This document shows positions 4,911 to 25,102 of a stretch of DNA of 40,932 nt, piece by piece. Both the position numbers and the translations under genes were made by a program. The DNA is taken from NCBI GenBank assembly GCA_964346565.1, contig CAYFVS010000224.1, forward strand, positions 1 to 40,932. Reading direction: 5' to 3'. How positions within the stretch are numbered: the first letter of the stretch is position 1; each line of letters opens with the position of its first letter. Origin of the DNA: an uncultured candidatus Brocadiaceae bacterium. Lineage in GTDB: Bacteria; Planctomycetota; Brocadiia; SM23-32. Below the pieces are notes generated by a model, which was not told the origin of the DNA, made no database searches, and saw only the letters and a list, made by a program, of their open reading frames with translations.

Positions 4911-6170
4911 GTGTCGGCTTCCCATTCAAGGCGCAACATCGTCTGCCACTTCCTGGACGGGGTGTTCTTCTTCGCGGCGCTGATCATGTTCAGCCGGGAA
5001 GTGATCATCCCGGCGATGATCAAGGAGCTGACGGACTCGGCGCTGCTGGTCGGTCTGGTGCCCTCGATCATATGGGTCGGCATTATCGCGCCGCAACTCC
5101 TCTACGCCAAGCGCATCGAGGGTCTTGCCTACAAGAAGCGCACGGTGCTGCTGTGGGTGTTCGTGCAGCGCGTTGGCTGGCTGGTGCTGCTTGCGTCCCT
5201 GTTCATGCGGTGGGGGCCCGTCTTCACCCTCACGGTCTTCTTCGTCACCCAGACCACCAACAGCCTGGGCAGCGGGTTCCTGATTCCCGTCTGGACGGAT
5301 TGGTACGCGAAGACGGTGCCGGAGGACATGTGGGGCCGGCTGCTGGGCTACCGGCGGGCGGTTCCCGGCGTGGTGGGGCTGGGGCTGGGATTTGCCATAG
5401 ACCACGTGATGGCCGCTTACCTCCCACCGGCGCGTTACCAGGTGCTGGCGGGCTGCGCGGTGCTGTTCTACGCCCTGTCCGCCCTCTGCGTGGCGCTGGT
5501 GCACGAGGAGCCGGAGGAGGACCTGCCGGATCAGCGAGGCGTCAGTCTGCGGGACTACCTGGGGGACGTCTCGAACATCCTCGTTCGCCGGCTCGACTTC
5601 CGCCGGTTCATGGTGGCCGCGCTGCTGACGTGCGTCCCGCTCACCATCACCATCACGTTCCTGATGCGCTACGGGTTGGAGTACCCGGGCGTGCCGGATG
5701 CCATCACGGGCACGTGTACGAAGGTGATGTTTGTCGCCGGCGCGGCGGGCGCCTTGCTCGGAGGCATCGTCAGCGACCGATGGAACGCGCTGGCGCCGTT
5801 CCGCGTCTTCCCCCTGTTCGGACTCGGGGCGGCCGCATTTGCCTTCGCGACGGCGCACCCGGCGGCCCTGACAACTGCCTTCGGGCTCTACGGCTTCGCC
5901 TTCGGGGTGCGGATGGTCGTCATGCTGCCGGCGGTGTTCCGCTACGCAGGGCCGGAGCGCAGGCCGACCTACACGGCGGTCTCCTTCACGGTCCTCAGCC
6001 TGCCCAGTGCCGTTCTGCCGCCGCTGCTCGGGGCGATGTTGGACGCCGACCTGCTGGCCTTTCCGCTGGTATTTCTTCTATGCGCCATAATGTCGCTGAT
6101 CGGGTGGGTGCTGTTCCTGGGCATGCCGGCTCCGGAGCTCAGTGAGGCGACTGGCGGCGCGGAGAGGTGA
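4911..6170 (+). CDS. MFS-type transporter, substrate unknown
   Basis: 419 aa, about 12 hydrophobic segments, GTG start 7 nt after a GGAG. The N-terminal architecture (R-N-x-x-x-H-F-L-D-G...) is paralogous to the MFS at 28454..29782. Confidence 0.8.
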   Translation: MSASHSRRNIVCHFLDGVFFFAALIMFSREVIIPAMIKELTDSALLVGLVPSIIWVGIIAPQLLYAKRIEGLAYKKRTVLLWVFVQRVGWLVLLASLFMRWGPVFTLTVFFVTQTTNSLGSGFLIPVWTDWYAKTVPEDMWGRLLGYRRAVPGVVGLGLGFAIDHVMAAYLPPARYQVLAGCAVLFYALSALCVALVHEEPEEDLPDQRGVSLRDYLGDVSNILVRRLDFRRFMVAALLTCVPLTITITFLMRYGLEYPGVPDAITGTCTKVMFVAGAAGALLGGIVSDRWNALAPFRVFPLFGLGAAAFAFATAHPAALTTAFGLYGFAFGVRMVVMLPAVFRYAGPERRPTYTAVSFTVLSLPSAVLPPLLGAMLDADLLAFPLVFLLCAIMSLIGWVLFLGMPAPELSEATGGAER

Positions 6171-6186
6171 GTGGTTGCCGCCTCTG

Positions 6187-6789
6187 TCACCGGCTGGTGA
6201 GCCACCGCTGGAAGCGCCTGCGGAACTCGCGCAGCGCCCTGCCCCGGTGGCTGACGGCGTTCTTCTGCTCCGGCGTCATCTGGGCGAAGCTCCTGCCCGC
6301 CGGCCCGTAGTAGAAGACCGGATCGTAGCCGAATCCGCCTTCGCCGACCATGTGCGTGAGGATGCGCCCGCCCACCCGGCCGCGGGCGGTCAGGGCGACC
6401 TCGCCTTCCGGACTCCCGAGCGCGATGCAGCACAGGAAGTGGGCAGTGCGCTCGGGCGCGGGCACGCCGTCCAGCTCTCTCAGCAACTTCCGGCACAGCT
6501 TCTGCGGCGTCGGGTCGGGGCCGGCGTAGCGGGCGCTGTGCACGCCCGGCCGGCCGTCCAGCGCGTCCACGAATAGCCCCGAGTCGTCGGCCACGGCGTA
6601 CATGCCGCAGGCGACTGCCGTCTGGCACGCCTTCCTGGCCGCGTTCTCGGCGGGGGTGTCGCCATCCTCAACGACCTCCGGCACGCCCGCCACACGGTCC
6701 GGGGTCAGGACTTCAACGGGCAGGTCCGCCAGCAGGGCACGCATCTCGCGGCACTTGCCCGGGTTCCCAGTTGCGATCAGCAAACGCAC
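6187..6789 (-). CDS. rdgB: Non-canonical purine NTP pyrophosphatase (dITP/XTP pyrophosphatase, RdgB/HAM1 family)
   Basis: MRLLIATGNPGKCREMRALL...DDSGLFVDALDGRPGVHSARYAG...GEGGFGYDPVF...KNAVSHRGRAL are the hallmark RdgB motifs. Confidence 0.9.
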   Translation of the reverse strand: MRLLIATGNPGKCREMRALLADLPVEVLTPDRVAGVPEVVEDGDTPAENAARKACQTAVACGMYAVADDSGLFVDALDGRPGVHSARYAGPDPTPQKLCRKLLRELDGVPAPERTAHFLCCIALGSPEGEVALTARGRVGGRILTHMVGEGGFGYDPVFYYGPAGRSFAQMTPEQKNAVSHRGRALREFRRRFQRWLTSR

Positions 6790-6859
6790 GCTCTTCCCTT
6801 CGCCTGAAGGTCCGGCGAGCCCATTCCGCCGAGGCTTCGAAGCCCACTGGACGCCGGAC

Positions 6860-9205
6860 CTACCCGTTCCTCTGCTGAACGGTCGCCCCGCGAGGTTGCA
6901 TCTGCGGGAACAGGTCCTGGACGGCCTCGGCGATCCGCTTCACGTAGCGCAGTTCGAGGCCCTCAAGCGAGGTCTCCCTGGCGATGTGCTCGACTGCGCG
7001 CCGGCTCTGCCCCGGCAGCATCGCCCTGCCGGTTCCGGCGCGCCGGGCGGCGGCCAGGCGCTCGCGGAGGTGCGGCACGTCGCGTATGCGGCCGTGCAAG
7101 GTGACCTCCCCCACGGCGGCGACGCCCTCCGGGATCGGCGCGTCGCACAAGACCGAGGCGAAACCCAGCGCGATGGCCAGGCCGAAGGCCGTGCCCTCCT
7201 TGGGCACTGCGCCGCCCGGCAAGTGCACGTGGAAGTCGGACTGCCGCAGCACGTCAGGGCTGACGCCGAACTCCGCCGCCCGGTTGCGCCAGAACTGATG
7301 CGCCAGCATAGCGCTCTCCCGCAGGGCCTCGCCAGCGCGCCCGGTCACTGTCAGCTTGCCCTCGCCCTCGGTGCGGCTCACCTCGACCCACATCAACTGG
7401 CCGCCGGCCGGAGACATGGCCAGTGTGGCACAGACACCGGGTCGGCCGACGCGCACGTGTCGTTCCGGCCTGTACTGCGCCGGCCCGAGAAGGTCGTGCA
7501 CGCGCGCAGCGTCCATGTGTTCGTAGCAGAACCGGCCGCCGACGTGCCGGCGGGCTACCTTGCGGCAGAGCGCCGCGATCCGCCTCTCCAGGTCTCGCAC
7601 CCCCGCCTCCTGGGTGTAGCCCTCGATAAGAAGCTCCAGGGCGTCCTCTGCGATCTCGACCCGCTTCGGGTCCAGCCCCGCCTCGGCGACCTGGGCGGGG
7701 ACCAGATACTGCCGGGCGATGCAGACCTTCTCCTCCGGGGAGTAGCCGGACAGCTCCATCACCTCGAGCCGGTCCAGCAGCGCCGGCGGGATTGTGTCCG
7801 ACGTGTTGGCCGTGCCGATAAACATCACGTGGGACAGGTCGAACGGGACGGCCAGGTAGTTGTCCACGAACGTGGCGTTCTGCTGCGGGTCCAGCACCTC
7901 CAGCAGGGCCGAGACGGGATCGCCTGTGAGCCCGCTGCGCAGCTTGTCCAGCTCGTCCAGCATCAGCACGGGGTTGCGTACGCCGACGTCGTGCAGCACG
8001 CGGATGATGCGTCCGGGCATGGCGCCGATGTAGGTGCGGCGGTGTCCGCGTATCTGCGCTTCGTCCCCCACCCCGCCCAGGGACACGCGCCGGAAGCGGC
8101 GACCGGTGGCCTCCGCGATGCTACGGCCGAGGGACGTCTTGCCGACGCCCGGAGCGCCGACGAAGCACAGCAGCGCCCCCTCCTGCTGCGGGTTGAGCTG
8201 CCGTACGCTCAGGTACTCCAGTATGCGCTCTTTGACCTCTTCCCGGTCGTAGTGGTCACGATCCAGGATCTCCCGCGCGGTCGCCAGGTCCACGAACGCA
8301 TCCGTCCGCTTCTGCCAGGGGAGCTGAGCCAGCCAGTCCAGATAGTCGCGCGCGATAGGGAACTCCGGCGATCCCGGAGGCATGTTGGCGAGCCGCGCCA
8401 GTTCCCGGTCGGCCTCCCGCCGTGCCTCCGGCGGAAGCTCGGCTTCGTCCAGCCTCTGGCGGGCGTCGCCCAGCTCGTCTTGCTCGCCGCTCAGCTCAGC
8501 CAGTCGGCTCTCCAGCTCGCGCTTGCGATCCTCCAGGTACTGCCGCCTGCCCTGCTCGCTGACTGAGCGCCTGGCGTCCTCCTGGATGCGCCGTTCGGCC
8601 GCTGCGATCTGCTCCTCGGTGCGCAGCACGGGGATCAACATGCGGTATCGGTTCACCGGATCGAGCTCCTCCAGGATCCGCTGTTTGTCTTCGACCTCCA
8701 GGGACAGGCCGAACGCCACTGCGTATCCCAGATCAGAAGAGCCCAGCAGCGACTCCATCTGAACCAGCGCCCGGACGGTCTCCGGCCCCGCCGAGACCAG
8801 CCTCTCCACCTCCCGGCGCAGCTCGGGGGGCGGTTCCTGGTCCGGTTCCGGCAGTGCCGCCACACGGACGGCCATGTACGGCTCGTCCGATTCGAGGGCT
8901 TCGATGCGGCACCGTGCCACGCCCTCGAGCAACACGTTCAGCACTTCCAGATCCAGCACTTCCCCCACCTGGCGGACGTTTGCCGTGACGCCGACCACGT
9001 AGAGATCGTCGAGAGTAGGTCGCTCGACGGTGGCATCACGCTGGGCCACCAGGACCAGTGTGTTGTCCCGTTGTTGGGCGGCGCGCAAGGCGGCGACCGA
9101 GCGTGGCCGGCCCACGCGCACGGCGGTGATCACGCCCGGGAACATGACCAGGTCCCGGAGGGGTATCAGGGGAAGGGTTCTGCTTCGCTGTTGGTCCCGG
9201 ACCAT
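6860..9205 (-). CDS. Lon-family AAA+ protein with a degenerate protease active site (Ser-Lys dyad replaced by Ala/Arg)
   Basis: 781 aa. It has a Lon N-domain (LPLIPLRDLVMFPGV), Walker A GAPGVGKTS, Walker B VLMLDELDK and PPALLDRLEV. The C-terminal domain aligns without gaps to E. coli Lon as I recall it, but reads PKEGTAFG where Lon has PKDGPSAG, and HLRERL where Lon has GLKEKL. Confidence 0.9.
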   Translation of the reverse strand: MVRDQQRSRTLPLIPLRDLVMFPGVITAVRVGRPRSVAALRAAQQRDNTLVLVAQRDATVERPTLDDLYVVGVTANVRQVGEVLDLEVLNVLLEGVARCRIEALESDEPYMAVRVAALPEPDQEPPPELRREVERLVSAGPETVRALVQMESLLGSSDLGYAVAFGLSLEVEDKQRILEELDPVNRYRMLIPVLRTEEQIAAAERRIQEDARRSVSEQGRRQYLEDRKRELESRLAELSGEQDELGDARQRLDEAELPPEARREADRELARLANMPPGSPEFPIARDYLDWLAQLPWQKRTDAFVDLATAREILDRDHYDREEVKERILEYLSVRQLNPQQEGALLCFVGAPGVGKTSLGRSIAEATGRRFRRVSLGGVGDEAQIRGHRRTYIGAMPGRIIRVLHDVGVRNPVLMLDELDKLRSGLTGDPVSALLEVLDPQQNATFVDNYLAVPFDLSHVMFIGTANTSDTIPPALLDRLEVMELSGYSPEEKVCIARQYLVPAQVAEAGLDPKRVEIAEDALELLIEGYTQEAGVRDLERRIAALCRKVARRHVGGRFCYEHMDAARVHDLLGPAQYRPERHVRVGRPGVCATLAMSPAGGQLMWVEVSRTEGEGKLTVTGRAGEALRESAMLAHQFWRNRAAEFGVSPDVLRQSDFHVHLPGGAVPKEGTAFGLAIALGFASVLCDAPIPEGVAAVGEVTLHGRIRDVPHLRERLAAARRAGTGRAMLPGQSRRAVEHIARETSLEGLELRYVKRIAEAVQDLFPQMQPRGATVQQRNG

Positions 9206-9286
9206 TGCCGGTGTCCGTTGCGCATCACAGAATGAGCCGGAGCAGCGACGAGGAGCAATACTCCGGCCCTTCCATTGTCGGCCAAC

Positions 9287-10717
9287 TCACTGTCCTTTTC
9301 CAGCGTGCACCGGCGCGGCCACCCGGAGATGGATGGGGACCTCTTCGTCGGGAGGATAGGGATACAGTGGCAGCTGCTCCCCTGCGGACCACTTCCGGCC
9401 GGCAAGCGCCGCCCATGCCCTGGCGCGCTCATCGAGCCCGTCGGCCAGTTGACCGGTAAGCGTCTCTGCGCCCGGATGGGTCGGCTTCGCGCCGTGTTTC
9501 CGTGCGTGGGCCCTGAACACCCACGGCCTGTCTATCAACATGCAGGGACGCAGCAGATTGCCGTCGTAAGGTATGCCCCGCCGGATGGCTTCGAACAGGG
9601 GGTGCTTCAACGCCTCGGTCAGGGTGGTGTCTTTCACGTTGTCCACGGCGAAGTGGCAGAAGACGCACGGCTCGATGTCGCCGTTGTTATTCACGTGGAA
9701 GTAGCGCTTCCCCCCCGCCATGCAGCCGTTGACCTCCGCCCCGTCGTTCCAGAAATCCGACAGGAAGATGGGATACTTGTTGCGCAGCTCGTAAACCCGC
9801 ACCCGCATGTGCTCGCGCTGCTCCGGGGTGACCATCAAGTCCAGGTTCGGGTTACGGCCGATGGGTATGTACTGGAAGTACCATCCGTAGAGACATCCGT
9901 GCTCGATCATGAGTTCGACGAACTCGTCCCTCATGATGGCCTCGGCGTTCCTCCGGGTGGCGGTGGCGCTGAAGCCGAACAGCACGCCCTCGCCCCGCAG
10001 GTTCTCCATCGCCTGGAGGACGAGCCGGTGGGTGCCCTTGCCCCGGCGGTCGTCGGTCAGCAGACGGTCGCCCTCGATGCTGAGCATGGGCATCACGTTG
10101 CCGCATTCGGCAAAGCGGGCGGCCACTTGCTGGTCAATGAGCGTGCCGTTGGTGTAGATCTGGAACTGGGAGTCCTGGTGCTCTCCGTAGAAGCGGTAAA
10201 GGTCCTTGCGCAGCGTGGGTTCGCCGCCGGAGAAGACGAAGAAGTGGATGCCCATCTTCTCCTCGGCCTCGGTCACCGCCCTGTCCAGCACATCGTAGGG
10301 CAGGTCTTCGCCCCTGCCGTACATCGCCGCCCAGCACCCTTCGCACGCCAGGTTGCACCGCGCCGTAACGTCGAACACGATGATGTACGGTGGGTCGTAG
10401 CCGTGCTGCTGGCGGAAGCGGCGTCGCCTGGAGCGGCTCAGGAACCAGGCGTAACCGTACAGATTCCGGATCAGGCAGGTCCTGGCCTTCGGATTCATCT
10501 CGGTGGAGATGCGCTTCAGCCACTGTCCGAAGGGATGCCCCTGCTCGACCAGCCACCTGAACCGGCGTGCCTGGCGCTTGTCCTCGGGATCGGTTGTCAC
10601 CTTCCCAAACAGCGACCAGATCCGGCCCAGAGAGTCCGGAGAGGAGTTCGCAATCAACTTGCTCAGCTGCCCGGCAACTGCCGACTTCGCTGCGTCTGTC
10701 GCCTTCTCAAAGACCAT
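9287..10717 (-). CDS. Radical SAM enzyme with a twitch/SPASM-like C-terminal Cys cluster, function unknown
   Basis: CNLACEGC (CxxxCxxC) follows an approximately 110-aa helical N-terminal region. It also has the FSGGEPTL glycine motif and a downstream NGCMAGG...PCVFCHF...RPCML Cys set. The start is taken at MVFEKATD (10717), preceded by GGGGGGTGG; the 507-aa listing adds an Arg-rich extension. Confidence 0.85.
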   Translation of the reverse strand: MVFEKATDAAKSAVAGQLSKLIANSSPDSLGRIWSLFGKVTTDPEDKRQARRFRWLVEQGHPFGQWLKRISTEMNPKARTCLIRNLYGYAWFLSRSRRRRFRQQHGYDPPYIIVFDVTARCNLACEGCWAAMYGRGEDLPYDVLDRAVTEAEEKMGIHFFVFSGGEPTLRKDLYRFYGEHQDSQFQIYTNGTLIDQQVAARFAECGNVMPMLSIEGDRLLTDDRRGKGTHRLVLQAMENLRGEGVLFGFSATATRRNAEAIMRDEFVELMIEHGCLYGWYFQYIPIGRNPNLDLMVTPEQREHMRVRVYELRNKYPIFLSDFWNDGAEVNGCMAGGKRYFHVNNNGDIEPCVFCHFAVDNVKDTTLTEALKHPLFEAIRRGIPYDGNLLRPCMLIDRPWVFRAHARKHGAKPTHPGAETLTGQLADGLDERARAWAALAGRKWSAGEQLPLYPYPPDEEVPIHLRVAAPVHAGKGQ

Positions 10718-10840
10718 AGTGCCACCCCCCCACGACCGAATGACTCGCGTTGCCCCGGTGCTTGACGCGCGTCGGTGCCCGTTCCCCGTCCTCCTTGCGG
10801 AGGCGAACACTTTCGGACGTACGCCACCGACAGAATACCC

Positions 10841-10869
10841 AGTCTACATGCCGCGCCGTGAGTGGTCAA
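10841..10869 (-). promoter_or_regulatory. Candidate sigma70 promoter for the radical SAM gene (TTGACC - 17 nt - TAGACT)
   Basis: On the minus strand, TTGACC is at 10869..10864 and TAGACT at 10846..10841 with a 17-nt spacer. It sits just downstream of the btuC stop and an A/T run, leaving a 5' UTR of about 115 nt. Confidence 0.45.
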
Positions 10870-10896
10870 GACAAAAAATGGGTGGCCGGCTCTGCT

Positions 10897-11928
10897 TCAC
10901 ATCTGTCGGCCCAGGCGCAGCAGAACTAGCAAGAAGAAAGGACCACCCAGCATCGCCGTGAGTACCCCCACCGGGAGTTCGGAGGGAGGAAACGCCGACC
11001 GCGCGACCGTGTCCGCCCCCGCCAGGAACGCGCCCCCCACAAACACCGACACGCACAGCAGTCGGCGATGGTCCGGCCCCAGGATGCCGCGTACCGCGTG
11101 GGGAATGATCAGGCCGACGAAGCCGATGGGACCGGCGATCGAAACCACCGACGCCGTCAGCAGGGAGCCCGCCAGGAATGCCTCCCGCTGCACGGCGCCC
11201 ACGGCCACCCCCCGGCCACCCGCCATCTCCTCCCCCAGGGCGAGCTGGTTCAGGGCGTTGGCCTCGGTGAACATCAGCACCACCGCGGGCAGGAAGAACG
11301 GCACCATGCTGCCCAGGCTGCGGTAGCCGTGCACATCCAGCCCCCCCATCAGCCAGCGGTCAACGATGACCAGCTTCTGTGGGTCACTGATGAAACGCAC
11401 GAACATGATGAGCGCGGAGCAGATCAGCCCCAACGTGACCCCGGCCAGCAGCAGAGTCAGCGGGGAGACGGTCCGCGAGCGCCGCGCGAGTGCGTATATG
11501 ATCGCGACGTTCACCAGCGCACCGGCCAGCGCGAAGAACTGCACCGAGGTCAGCGCGCCGAAAGCGGGCGCCCGCAGACCGAGCGAAATAGCTGCCACGG
11601 CCCATAGGGCGCCGCCTGCGCTCACACCCAGAGTGTGAGGCGTGGCCAGCGGATTGCGCAGGAGCGCCTGGAAGACGGCCCCGGCCACCGCCAGGCCGCC
11701 TCCGGCCAGCAGGCCAAGCAGCACGCGGGGCAGGCGCTGCATCAGCACGATGTTGGCCTGCCCCGGGTCCTCCGCCGTGCCCACCAGCACCCGCAGCACC
11801 TGCCCCGGCGGCACGTGCACCTGGCCGAACATCAGACAAACCGTCCCCACCACGACCCATAGCAGCAGGCCGCCGGCCAATGCCGTCCAGAAGCGGCCCG
11901 GCGTCAGATGTAAGTCAGCGCGTCTCAT
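10897..11928 (-). CDS. btuC: FecCD-family ABC permease (cobalamin/siderophore type, BtuC-like)
   Basis: QRLPRVLLGLLAGGGLAVAGAVFQALLRNPLATPHTLGVSAGG and the C-terminal LTAMLGGPFFLLVLLR are FecCD signatures. The start is taken at MRRADLHL (11928), overlapping the ATPase stop by 14 nt. It is the last gene of the riboswitch-led operon. Confidence 0.85.
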   Translation of the reverse strand: MRRADLHLTPGRFWTALAGGLLLWVVVGTVCLMFGQVHVPPGQVLRVLVGTAEDPGQANIVLMQRLPRVLLGLLAGGGLAVAGAVFQALLRNPLATPHTLGVSAGGALWAVAAISLGLRAPAFGALTSVQFFALAGALVNVAIIYALARRSRTVSPLTLLLAGVTLGLICSALIMFVRFISDPQKLVIVDRWLMGGLDVHGYRSLGSMVPFFLPAVVLMFTEANALNQLALGEEMAGGRGVAVGAVQREAFLAGSLLTASVVSIAGPIGFVGLIIPHAVRGILGPDHRRLLCVSVFVGGAFLAGADTVARSAFPPSELPVGVLTAMLGGPFFLLVLLRLGRQM

Positions 11929-22776: not shown

Positions 22777-24144
22777 CTACCCCCGCGCGTTCTCTGGCTC
22801 CCCCAGCAGGCGCGCCGCTGCGCGCAGGTGCCGCACGGGGGAGACGTCCAGCCCCAGCCGGCCGGCCTCGTCAGCGTCACTCTCCGGCACCACGGCGTGC
22901 CCGAACCCCAGCTTCCGGGCCTCCTTCAGCCGTTCGGCCAGTCGGCCCACGGCTCGCACTTCTCCACCCAGGCCCACCTCTCCGACCGCGACCGTAGCCG
23001 GCGGGAACCCGCGGTCGGTGAACGAGGACGCCAAAGCCATCGCCAGCGGCAGGTCGGCCGCGGGCTCCGGGACGCGGATGCCGCCGGCCACGTTCACGAA
23101 GGCGTCGCATTTGCCCAGCTCCAGCCCGGCCCTGCGCTCCAGCACGGACAGCATCATGCTGAAACGCCGGTAGTCCACCCCGGTCACCTTCCGCTCGGGC
23201 GTCCCGTAGGCGGGTGGCCCGACCAGCGCCTGGATCTCCACCAGCAGGGCCCGCCTTCCCTCCAGCGCGGCGGTGACCACCGCACCCGTCGCCGATTCGT
23301 CCCTCTCGGCCAGGAACAGCTCGCTGGGGTTGGCGACCTCCCGGAGGCCGTCGCCGGTCATCTCAAAGACGCCGACCTCGTTGATCGCGCCGAAGCGATT
23401 CTTGGCGGCGCGCAGGATGCGCAGCGACTGGGAACCCTCGCTCTCGAAATACAGCACCGTGTCCACCAGGTGCTCCAGCGCCCGCGGCCCGGCGATGATT
23501 CCGCGCTTGGTGACGTGGCCGGTCAGGAACAGCGCCGCTCCGTTGCGCTTGCAGTGCTCCACCAGCGCGGTCCCGCAGATGGAGACCTGCTTCAGGCTCC
23601 CGGGCATCGAGTCCAGCGCCCCGGCACCGACGCGCTGGACGCTGTCAACGATGACGACCTGCGGCTTCTGCGCCGCCAACATGCCAAGGATGGCCTCCAG
23701 CTCCGTCTCCGCACAGACCGCAAGGTCGCTTTCCTCCAGCCCGAGCCGCTCTGCGCGCATCTTGACCTGTTCGAGCGACTCCTCGCAGCTTACGTAGGCG
23801 CATGCCACGTCAGCGGCTGCCATGCGCCCGGCCGCCTGGAGCAGTATGGTTGATTTGCCGACGCCCGGCGCCCCGCCCAACAGAACGGCGCTGCCCAGCA
23901 GCAGCCCTCCCCCCAGGACGCGGTCCAGCTCCGCGATGCCCGTGCAAAGGCAATGCTGATAGTCCACGCCGAGGTCCGCCAGGCGGACCGATACCGCCGC
24001 TTCGGCCGCCTCAGGCGCGCCACCCGCGCCCGGACCGGTTTCCTGGAGCGTGTCCCACTCCAGGCAGTTTGGGCAGCGGCCGCTCCAGCGGTAGAAAGTG
24101 GCCCCGCACTCGCTGCAGACGTATTCCGTTCCCTTCCTGGCCAT
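22777..24144 (-). CDS. radA: DNA repair protein RadA/Sms
   Basis: It has the Zn-finger CSECGATFYRWSGRCPNC, Walker A GGAPGVGKST, the KNRFG motif and a Lon-like C-terminal domain. The start is at MARKGTEY (24144). The listed 637-aa ORF is an extension that overlaps the upstream kinase gene. Confidence 0.93.
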   Translation of the reverse strand: MARKGTEYVCSECGATFYRWSGRCPNCLEWDTLQETGPGAGGAPEAAEAAVSVRLADLGVDYQHCLCTGIAELDRVLGGGLLLGSAVLLGGAPGVGKSTILLQAAGRMAAADVACAYVSCEESLEQVKMRAERLGLEESDLAVCAETELEAILGMLAAQKPQVVIVDSVQRVGAGALDSMPGSLKQVSICGTALVEHCKRNGAALFLTGHVTKRGIIAGPRALEHLVDTVLYFESEGSQSLRILRAAKNRFGAINEVGVFEMTGDGLREVANPSELFLAERDESATGAVVTAALEGRRALLVEIQALVGPPAYGTPERKVTGVDYRRFSMMLSVLERRAGLELGKCDAFVNVAGGIRVPEPAADLPLAMALASSFTDRGFPPATVAVGEVGLGGEVRAVGRLAERLKEARKLGFGHAVVPESDADEAGRLGLDVSPVRHLRAAARLLGEPENARG

Positions 24145-24166
24145 CCCACTCCCCTCAATGCATCGC

Positions 24167-25102
24167 CTAAGCGTCCCCGATGGGCTCCGCCGACTCGAGG
24201 AAGTCCTCCACCTCTTCGAGGGACGGTATCCCCCGCCGGCCGCCCAGCGCGCGGCACTTGAGGGCGGCCGTGGCCGAGGCGACTCGCATGATCCGCTCCA
24301 GCTCCCAGCCGCGGGCAACACCCAGCGAGAAAGCGCCGTGGTAAACGTCGCCGCAGCCCGTCGTGTCCGCCACCGACACGAAGTAGGCAGGCTGGCGGAT
24401 GGTGCCCTCCGCGTGCACCGCGACCGACCCTCGAGGGCCGGCCGTGACCACTGCCGCCCGCCCGCCGCAGGCGGCAATCTCTTCGTAGAGGGCTGCCGCC
24501 GCCCGTTGCGGCTCCTGCTCGCCGTAGCGGTCGCGGGCGAACCCCAGCGGCACCACCGCGTAGTCGCAGTTGGCAAGCAGGTCGTCAGCGCGGCCGCCCT
24601 GCCCCTCCAGGTCCAGCGTGACCGGAATGCCCGCCGAGCGGGCCAGGCGCGCGGCGCGCAACGCCGGCTCCGGCTGGAAGTTGTCCACATGCACCACCGC
24701 CGCCCGGCTCACGACGCCCTCCGTGATGCTCTCGGGCGGCAGGACCGGCCAGTTGTCCGTAGAACAGAAGATCGTCCGCGTGCCTGCCGAGCTGTCGGCA
24801 AGGATCACGGCCACGACCACCGAACCGCCAGGGACCCGTGCGATGAAGCGGGTGTCCACGCCCTCGCGCTCGAAATCCCGCACGCAGAACTCCCCGAAGG
24901 CATCGTCGCCGAGAGCGCCCAGGTACGCCGCCCGTCCGCCCAGCCGCGCGACGGCCACCAGGGCCGTCCCGACCAGGCCGCCCCCCTGCGGCAGTATGCG
25001 GGTCTCACGGGTCTTCTGATCCTCCTCCGGCAGGCCTTCCACCTCGACCACGATGTCGAAGGCGCAGACACCGACTCCGATGACGTCGTAGTCCCGGCTC
25101 AT
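24167..25102 (-). CDS. PfkB-family carbohydrate kinase (ribokinase fold)
   Basis: VIGVGVCAFDIV..., GGGLVGTALVAVARLGG and DTTGCGDVYHGAF (the PfkB anion-hole/DTxGAGD motif). The start is at MSRDYDVIG (25102). It is paralogous to 36161..37111. Confidence 0.8.
   Translation of the reverse strand: MSRDYDVIGVGVCAFDIVVEVEGLPEEDQKTRETRILPQGGGLVGTALVAVARLGGRAAYLGALGDDAFGEFCVRDFEREGVDTRFIARVPGGSVVVAVILADSSAGTRTIFCSTDNWPVLPPESITEGVVSRAAVVHVDNFQPEPALRAARLARSAGIPVTLDLEGQGGRADDLLANCDYAVVPLGFARDRYGEQEPQRAAAALYEEIAACGGRAAVVTAGPRGSVAVHAEGTIRQPAYFVSVADTTGCGDVYHGAFSLGVARGWELERIMRVASATAALKCRALGGRRGIPSLEEVEDFLESAEPIGDA

Follow-up and report, generated by a model that had tools for sequence, protein, structure and literature searches.

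The stretch of DNA analysed here, referred to as the window, is the 40,932-nucleotide contig CAYFVS010000224.1 (assembly GCA_964346565.1) of an uncultured Candidatus Brocadiaceae bacterium. Its minus strand carries a gene, here called lon2, for a paralogue of the LonA protease in which the ATPase motor is predicted to be intact and the peptidase centre appears to have been dismantled. The product (P0001, hereafter Lon2) carries on one polypeptide an N-domain, an AAA+ module plus lid and, at the C-terminus, a Lon_C domain, which is the LonA architecture as delimited by Pfam:

6860..9205, minus strand: lon2, encoding a 781-residue LonA paralogue with a predicted dead protease site (open reading frame list, translation, TIGR00763 and Pfam)
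8624..9178, minus strand: LON_substr_bdg (PF02190), the N-terminal Lon substrate-binding domain, residues 10-194 (121.6 bits; predicted local distance difference test score (pLDDT) of the AlphaFold2 (AF2) model mostly >90)
7526..8290, minus strand: AAA+ module, residues 306-560 (PF00004 at 346-483; PF22667, Lon_lid, at 508-556)
6908..7513, minus strand: Lon_C domain, residues 565-766, folded and catalytically remodelled (PF05362 at 565-765, 149.8 bits; pLDDT ~85-94)

Lon2 passes the LonA equivalog model of NCBIfam, TIGR00763, with 709.4 bits against a cut-off of 608, and falls below that of the stricter model NF008053 (600.6 bits, cut-off 891). A phmmer search of the PDB chains aligned residues 9-776 to E. 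coli LonA (6u5z, an S679A mutant; E = 5.7e-176). The AF2 model, built from the alignment of the clade described below, has a mean pLDDT of 81, is confident in the protease domain except for the serine loop, and matched full-length LonA structures in Foldseek. Lon2 keeps the complete LonA architecture, including a folded Lon_C domain.

In active Lon the catalytic dyad consists of S679 and K722, with D676 and the serine loop controlling access to it (PMC7239648), and the substrate groove is built by the beta-1 strand and the loop preceding the Ser helix (PMC9569914). The preliminary description of this locus, made from the letters alone, had claimed a gapless C-terminal alignment to E. coli Lon, with PKDGPSAG changed to PKEGTAFG so that Ala (GCC, 7189..7187) stands at Ser679 and, 43 residues on, LKEK changed to LRER so that Arg (CGC, 7060..7058) stands at Lys722. 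All of these assignments held when the coordinates were translated and the columns assigned formally, by phmmer against 6u5z and by BLASTP against the canonical Lon of the same genome. The phmmer alignment is ungapped over residues 613-714 and sets A673 on 679 and R716 on Lys722, pairing PKEGTAFG with PKDGPaAG and HLRERL with GLKEKL at a spacing of 43 residues in both proteins; BLASTP returned identical columns (PKEGTAFG/PKDGPSAG and HLRERL/GGIKEK). Neither catalytic column holds a Ser or a Lys, and a misalignment concealing one nearby was ruled out, as both alignments are ungapped across both motifs. The remodelled positions, all on the minus strand, are:

7181..7204: serine loop PKEGTAFG (canonical PKDGPSAG), with D676E, P678T, S679A and A680F in E. 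coli numbering
7187..7189: Ala673 codon GCC, in the column of the catalytic Ser679 (translated coordinates and alignment)
7058..7060: Arg716 codon CGC, in the column of the catalytic Lys722; Arg in 34/34 inner-clade clusters
7112..7114: Val698, in the Thr704 column (Thr in 100% of canonical LonA, lost across the paralogue clade)
7070..7075: Pro711-His712, in the Gly717-Gly718 columns (each 100% Gly in canonical LonA)
7415..7432: beta-1 strand lining the substrate groove, remodelled to C592-A-T594-L-A-M597, with Met597 replacing W603

The Ser-Lys dyad by which LonA is recognised (E. coli S679/K722) is represented by Ala673 and Arg716, and the motifs of an A-type peptidase centre (PKDGPSAG, Thr704 and GG-x-KEK) read PKEGTAFG, Val698 and PHLRER, with substitutions in ten columns that at least 95% of canonical LonA conserve. 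A catalytic role for Thr704 was reportedly described in papers of 2004 by Botos and Rotanova.

The loss extends well around these motifs. In an alignment of P0001 with its 120 best database relatives, columns conserved to at least 95% in 85 canonical LonA sequences were picked out and compared with the 34 closest relatives, which retain 100 of 116 of them in the AAA+ module but only 32 of 58 in the protease domain. The lost protease columns concentrate around the catalytic neighbourhood, beyond the Ser-Lys dyad alone:

G600 column: G594T in the clade; Thr in P0001
W603 column: W597V/M in the clade; Met in P0001
D676 column: D670E in the clade; Glu in P0001
P678 column: P672T/A in the clade; Thr in P0001
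S679 column: S673 variable in the clade; Ala in P0001
A680 column: A674 changed in the clade; Phe in P0001
M703 column: M697A in the clade; Ala in P0001
T704 column: T698L/V/I in the clade; Val in P0001
G717 column: G711D in the clade; Pro in P0001
G718 column: G712R in the clade; His in P0001
K722 column: K716R in the clade; Arg in P0001
D743 column: D737 variable in the clade; Ala in P0001

Judged by these columns, the peptidase centre of Lon2 appears to be without its nucleophile, general base, Thr704 equivalent, Gly-Gly turn ahead of the Lys helix, groove Trp and serine-loop Asp. A sequencing or assembly error was ruled out as the source of the dyad loss, because the independently assembled genome G001, from the same genus, has Ala and Arg at both columns (KEGTASGLA and NLRERLAAA) and the 34 closest clusters have Arg.

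The ATPase half of the protein presents the opposite picture to the protease half. Both Walker motifs were located on the minus strand:

8132..8158, minus strand: Walker A, GAPGVGKTS (canonical GPPGVGKTS; Pro-Pro lost)
7943..7963, minus strand: Walker B, MLDELDK

K356 (Walker A), D417 and E418 (Walker B), N467 (sensor-1), R479 (Arg finger) and R537 (sensor-2) are invariant in 35 clade sequences and the pore-loop Y392 is conserved in at least 90%, the E. coli equivalents being K362, D423, E424, N473, R484, R542 and Y398, respectively. P0001 holds the full set of LonA ATPase residues, and the motor is predicted to be intact. The Walker A motif itself has changed from GPPG(V/T)GKT to GAPGVGKT in 31/34 clade members, and the conserved Pro344 has become Ala in 33/34. 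The polyproline of the Lon Walker A has been tied to dependence on elongation factor P (EF-P), and Lon loss has been described in Planctomycetes with transferred EF-P (PMC11388002, 2024); lon2 may have escaped from EF-P dependence.

Elsewhere in the source assembly (495 contigs, 92% complete), contig C3 gives another match to Lon_C, with 295 bits. This is a canonical lon gene (G000:C3:2-1417, product here called Lon1) with GPPGTGKTS, PKDGPSAG and GGIKEK, truncated where its 2.5-kb contig begins, which leaves its N-domain and its neighbours (e.g. clpX) out of view; Lon1 and Lon2 share 49% identity over the AAA+ and protease domains (BLASTP). The possibility that lon2 is the only Lon of the genome was thereby ruled out. 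The preliminary description had further taken the AAA+ module and the N-domain to be intact and the protein to be distinct from the housekeeping Lon; the motifs, the PF02190 match and the Ser/Lys Lon on C3 bear this out, and orthologues share the altered state, with Ala/Arg in G001 and Arg in 34/34 of the closest clusters.

Forty relatives were searched and motifs were taken from 50 loci. The paralogue is present in 16/25 genomes of the family to which the window belongs, at 47-81% identity to P0001, and its carriers also hold a canonical Lon with an intact dyad (~40-43% identity), the exceptions being G015 and G020, the two most incomplete carriers (64% and 70% complete), in which only the paralogue was found. 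A Lon with the canonical PKDGPSAG/GGIKEK motifs coexists with the paralogue in the source genome, and the like is seen in 11 relatives. The nine family genomes without a detectable paralogue include eight with a canonical Lon; G007 (82% complete) gave no Lon match whatever at the threshold used. In the remaining families of the class, closed ~4-Mb genomes among them, every Lon is canonical, and an even sample of 400 genomes from the phylum yielded no member of the paralogue, leaving a phylum-wide clade unsupported. In a 1.8-billion-protein library represented at 50% identity, 143/150 of the best representatives have Ser/Lys, and the only exceptions with data belong to the lon2 lineage.

Maximum-likelihood trees were built under LG+G4 (93 rows) and under a posterior mean site frequency (PMSF) mixture (83 rows); these were quick searches, unrooted, with support from the Shimodaira-Hasegawa-like approximate likelihood ratio test (SH-aLRT) only. 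The paralogue forms one clade in both (SH-aLRT 99-100), within which the inner, Arg-bearing clade has a support of 98-99. No member retains Thr in the Thr704 column. Basal members (P0035, P0036, P0125 and the G021 and G002 copies) keep Ser and Lys, although neither the Thr704 column nor the Gly-Gly turn survives in them; inner members have Arg at the Lys column in all but the partial G016 copy, which has Lys, with Gly at the Ser column. Orthologues share catalytic substitutions as those of a pseudo-protease would, with Arg in 34/34 clusters and the Thr704 column lost clade-wide. Within the inner clade the Ser column was altered ~10 times, to A, M, F, G and W, out of 11 changes in the whole tree, a pattern that fits a site no longer catalytic; Ala at this column is common to the source genome and G001. 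Lon2 originated through gene duplication in a single family of the class to which the anammox bacteria also belong (NCBI: Candidatus Brocadiia), and its dismantling followed an order: first the Thr704 column, then Lys to Arg, then repeated losses of Ser.

Two very divergent metagenomic sequences, P0133 and P0172, combine Ser/Arg with a lost Thr704 column. In the unrooted tree their long branches attach on the same side as the clade; they could be distant relatives within this lineage or could represent separate Lys-to-Arg substitutions, and because of their placement the count of such events stays at one to three. Their motifs are PKDGPSLGLA/LRERL in P0172 (L059 5001-7349) and RDTTSCGLP/LRERL in P0133, and their neighbours are unrelated to those of lon2, with Pirin and glutathione S-transferase genes beside one and an ATP-binding cassette transporter beside the other.

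Selection on the paralogue was estimated as the ratio of non-synonymous to synonymous substitution rates (dN/dS; Nei-Gojobori) for one genome pair, G000 (the source) and G001:

lon2, whole gene: 0.18
lon2, AAA+ module: 0.14
lon2, protease domain: 0.19
canonical Lon: 0.13
canonical Lon, protease part: 0.17

The predicted dead domain is thus under purifying selection close to that on its canonical counterpart, as in pseudo-proteases that are retained for a function. Pairwise identities within the same nine genomes show the paralogue outpacing canonical Lon throughout, by a factor of 1.3 to 2.9 depending on the domain, with mean identities, paralogue against canonical, of 78% and 91% for the AAA+ module, 54% and 77% for the protease domain and 49% and 82% for the long-helix region. 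That the protease domain alone is relaxed or decaying was ruled out, given its dN/dS and an acceleration that is as great or greater in the other domains. The clade has also gained invariant residues of its own: D287 (canonical Thr), R321 (Leu, 100%), R402 (Gln, 99%), L676 and R716, together with Cys592 and Thr594, which are invariant in all 36 clade sequences analysed and stand for a canonical Ala (88%) and Gly (100%). Arg716 is found in 34/34 sequences of the inner clade, the basal P0035 and P0036 of this 36-sequence set keeping Lys. Taken together, the substitutions read as the signature of a changed job rather than of decay.

It is barely credible, by comparison, that lon2 is a functionless decaying duplicate or an assembly artefact. 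The paralogue does evolve faster than Lon1, nine of the 25 family genomes lack it and the G009 copy is frameshifted, as such a reading would have it, but the 781-residue frame in the window is intact with a whole-gene dN/dS of 0.18, family-wide identity in the AAA+ module averages 78%, the catalytic ATPase residues are invariant, and identical substitutions recur in the independent assembly G001. The G009 orthologue (L027, G009:C14:63414-68468) is split across three frames by several frameshifts; the canonical Lon of that genome (L047, G009:C4), an assembly of few contigs and 78% completeness, is likewise truncated, which points to indels introduced in assembly more than to pseudogenes, and the copy was set aside as evidence of pseudogenisation.

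The new residues raise a second alternative, that Lon2 is a hydrolase with a rebuilt centre, formed by Cys592 or Thr594 with His659/His661 or Arg716, or by a Ser/Arg pair in the relatives that retain Ser. Cys592 and Thr594 are invariant, Arg716 is fixed in the inner clade, the strand (beta-1) and the helix on which these residues sit form part of the lining of the substrate groove (groove as in PMC9569914), and the protease domain is under constraint. Set against this, the Ser column has been replaced by five different residues some ten times, and the oxyanion and turn glycines and Thr704 are gone in all members, which makes a rebuilt hydrolase very improbable. Slightly less improbable, and still a long shot, is that the rebuilt pocket (Cys592, Thr594, Arg716 and the retained His659/His661) is a new functional centre, which would make Lon2 a new kind of AAA+ machine whose chamber binds or chemically processes threaded clients with no Ser-Lys cleavage. 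If so, clients might be presented to the radical S-adenosylmethionine (SAM)/SPASM enzyme encoded alongside, or undergo thiol- or Thr-based chemistry.

A third alternative gives Lon2 the part of a non-catalytic subunit in mixed hexamers with Lon1, whose substrate choice or processivity it would tune, much as ClpR acts in ClpP/R rings or FtsHi in FtsH12/FtsHi complexes. Every reasonably complete genome with the paralogue has Lon1 (the exceptions G015 and G020 being the incomplete ones above), identity between the two proteins reaches 49% in the AAA+ and protease regions, the ring-forming protease domain is under purifying selection, and inactive paralogues within active protease rings have precedent (PMC7966870, PMC8197885). 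Yet lon1 and lon2 are unlinked, on separate contigs, the ring-contacting AAA+ and helical regions have changed two to three times as fast in Lon2 as in Lon1, and eight of the nine family genomes without Lon2 do with canonical Lon alone; mixed rings, although the strongest of the competitors, are accordingly considered unlikely.

Immediately around lon2, three features on the minus strand bear on its expression and context:

6187..6789, minus strand: rdgB, XTP/dITP diphosphatase, 70 nucleotides downstream of lon2 (TIGR00042, 158.9 against a cut-off of 145.35)
9287..10810, minus strand: radical SAM/SPASM gene, 81 nucleotides upstream of lon2 (no equivalog cut-off reached)
10841..10869, minus strand: sigma-70-like promoter match upstream of the radical SAM gene, the only one in 6000-11000 (consensus scan only)

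A consensus scan of the minus strand found no terminator-like hairpin separating rdgB, lon2 and the radical SAM gene and, with the single promoter match, this makes co-transcription of the three genes plausible. A Ham1p_like/RdgB gene lies directly 3' of lon2 in three long metagenomic contigs (L054-L056), with gaps of 5-24 nucleotides, rdgB follows lon2 in 11 further loci of relatives (tblastn), which makes it a conserved partner of lon2 across the inner clade, and the radical SAM gene lies 5' of lon2 in seven relatives. Neither gene was found beside the basal Lys-keeping copies, P0036, P0133, P0172 or canonical Lon genes. The wider neighbourhood is also syntenic in the family (B12 import/cob genes, 5-enolpyruvylshikimate-3-phosphate (EPSP) synthase and a CE4-UGM-GT87 module), and because of this broad synteny adjacency alone is weak evidence of a functional link. 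The radical SAM/SPASM protein, of 476-507 residues, gave weak matches to NirJ/NirJ2, AhbD and SPASM/mycofactocin-maturase models, and its gene is placed between a B12 import/salvage operon and lon2.

The reading that best accommodates these observations is that lon2 probably encodes a naturally protease-dead LonA paralogue working as an ATP-driven unfoldase or sequestering chaperone. The preliminary description had likewise proposed a proteolytically dead, ATP-dependent unfoldase, chaperone or adaptor, and the parts of that proposal open to checking hold. Lon2 would assemble as a Lon-type hexamer, its diverged N-domain and long-helix region would recognise client proteins, and ATP would be used to unfold and thread these clients, which would then be held, remodelled or released uncut, so that specific proteins are remodelled or silenced. 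The gene is probably co-transcribed with rdgB and perhaps also with the upstream radical SAM/SPASM gene. In its favour, engineered K722A Lon is proteolytically inactive and retains substrate binding (PMC11986505). Several points tell against the reading. Ser is still present at the catalytic column in 23/34 clade members, and residual or conditional peptidase activity might persist in these relatives. Arg occasionally serves as a base in other enzymes. Thr672, Cys592 or Thr594 could conceivably offer P0001 an alternative nucleophile, homo-hexamers and mixed hexamers with Lon1 would look alike on the present evidence, and rdgB and the radical SAM gene may adjoin lon2 through common descent, not function. 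Dyad mutants of Lon are reported to sequester substrates in vivo or to act as assembly chaperones, in work attributed to Van Melderen and Gottesman (1999) and to Rep et al. (1996).

Compared with LonA (MEROPS S16 subfamily A; E. coli and Meiothermus taiwanensis Lon), Lon2 is alike in its three-part architecture, at ~40-44% identity, in its ATPase and pore-loop residues and in its Lon_C fold, but it differs in reading PHLRER for GG(I/L)KEK and PKEGTAFG for PKDGPSAG, in the replacement of the T704, W603 and D743 equivalents, in the lost Walker A Pro-Pro and in a strongly diverged N-domain and long-helix region. Engineered S679A or K722A Lon carries the same kind of lesion, whereas that of Lon2 is natural, multi-residue and clade-fixed, is accompanied by new invariant residues and coexists with a wild-type Lon. 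FtsHi and ClpR of plastids and cyanobacteria are, like Lon2, paralogues of AAA+ protease components that lack catalytic residues and occur beside active paralogues, and they remain essential or selected (PMC8197885, PMC7966870); they belong to other protease families (M41 and S14) and form hetero-complexes. Lon2 is bacterial and confined to one Planctomycetota family. Lon2 probably works most like these pseudo-proteases and the engineered S679A/K722A Lon. A Lon_C-like fold without the dyad is also reused in RadA/Sms, BrxL and ComM/YifB, which have other architectures and are ancient separate families, and P0001 gave weak profile matches to the BrxL, RadA and YifB models of NCBIfam. MEROPS S16 includes non-peptidase homologues, and LonC has lost its ATPase residues (PMC9569914), making it a Lon with a dead ATPase half where Lon2 is predicted to be dead in the protease half. 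Unlike all of these, Lon2 scores as a genuine LonA over its full length and lies next to canonical LonA in the tree. Full-text literature searches turned up no account of a natural LonA that is full-length and conserved but has its peptidase centre dismantled.

Proteolysis-independent roles of Lon (chaperone, sequestration, DNA-linked) have so far been probed almost only with S679A or K722A mutants. The lon2 clade is a natural experiment in which a full LonA motor has long been under selection with its peptidase centre dismantled and a normal Lon in the same cell, and it provides a concrete protein for cryo-electron microscopy and biochemistry of a non-degrading Lon. It also records an ordered decay of the active site, from Thr704 through Lys to Arg and on to Ser, and it extends to Lon the pseudo-protease theme of FtsH (FtsHi) and ClpP (ClpR). 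There is a caution for annotation: lon2 genes are named as proteases, the nearest proteins in NCBI records being called 'endopeptidase La [Candidatus Brocadiia bacterium]' or 'ATP-dependent Lon protease', and they pass the TIGR00763 cut-off. Lon2 is a LonA by architecture and score, but by its residues it would fail the enzymatic definition of 'endopeptidase La' and should not be annotated as a protease.

Two further open frames of the window were noted. On the plus strand at 4911-6170, convergent with rdgB, lies a gene for a 419-residue polytopic membrane protein that matched nothing in NCBIfam at 1e-5; in one relative a comparable position is taken by MFS_1 genes. On the minus strand, a 637-residue open frame at 22777-24690 contains a weak Lon_C match (22.9 bits) at 22867-23079.

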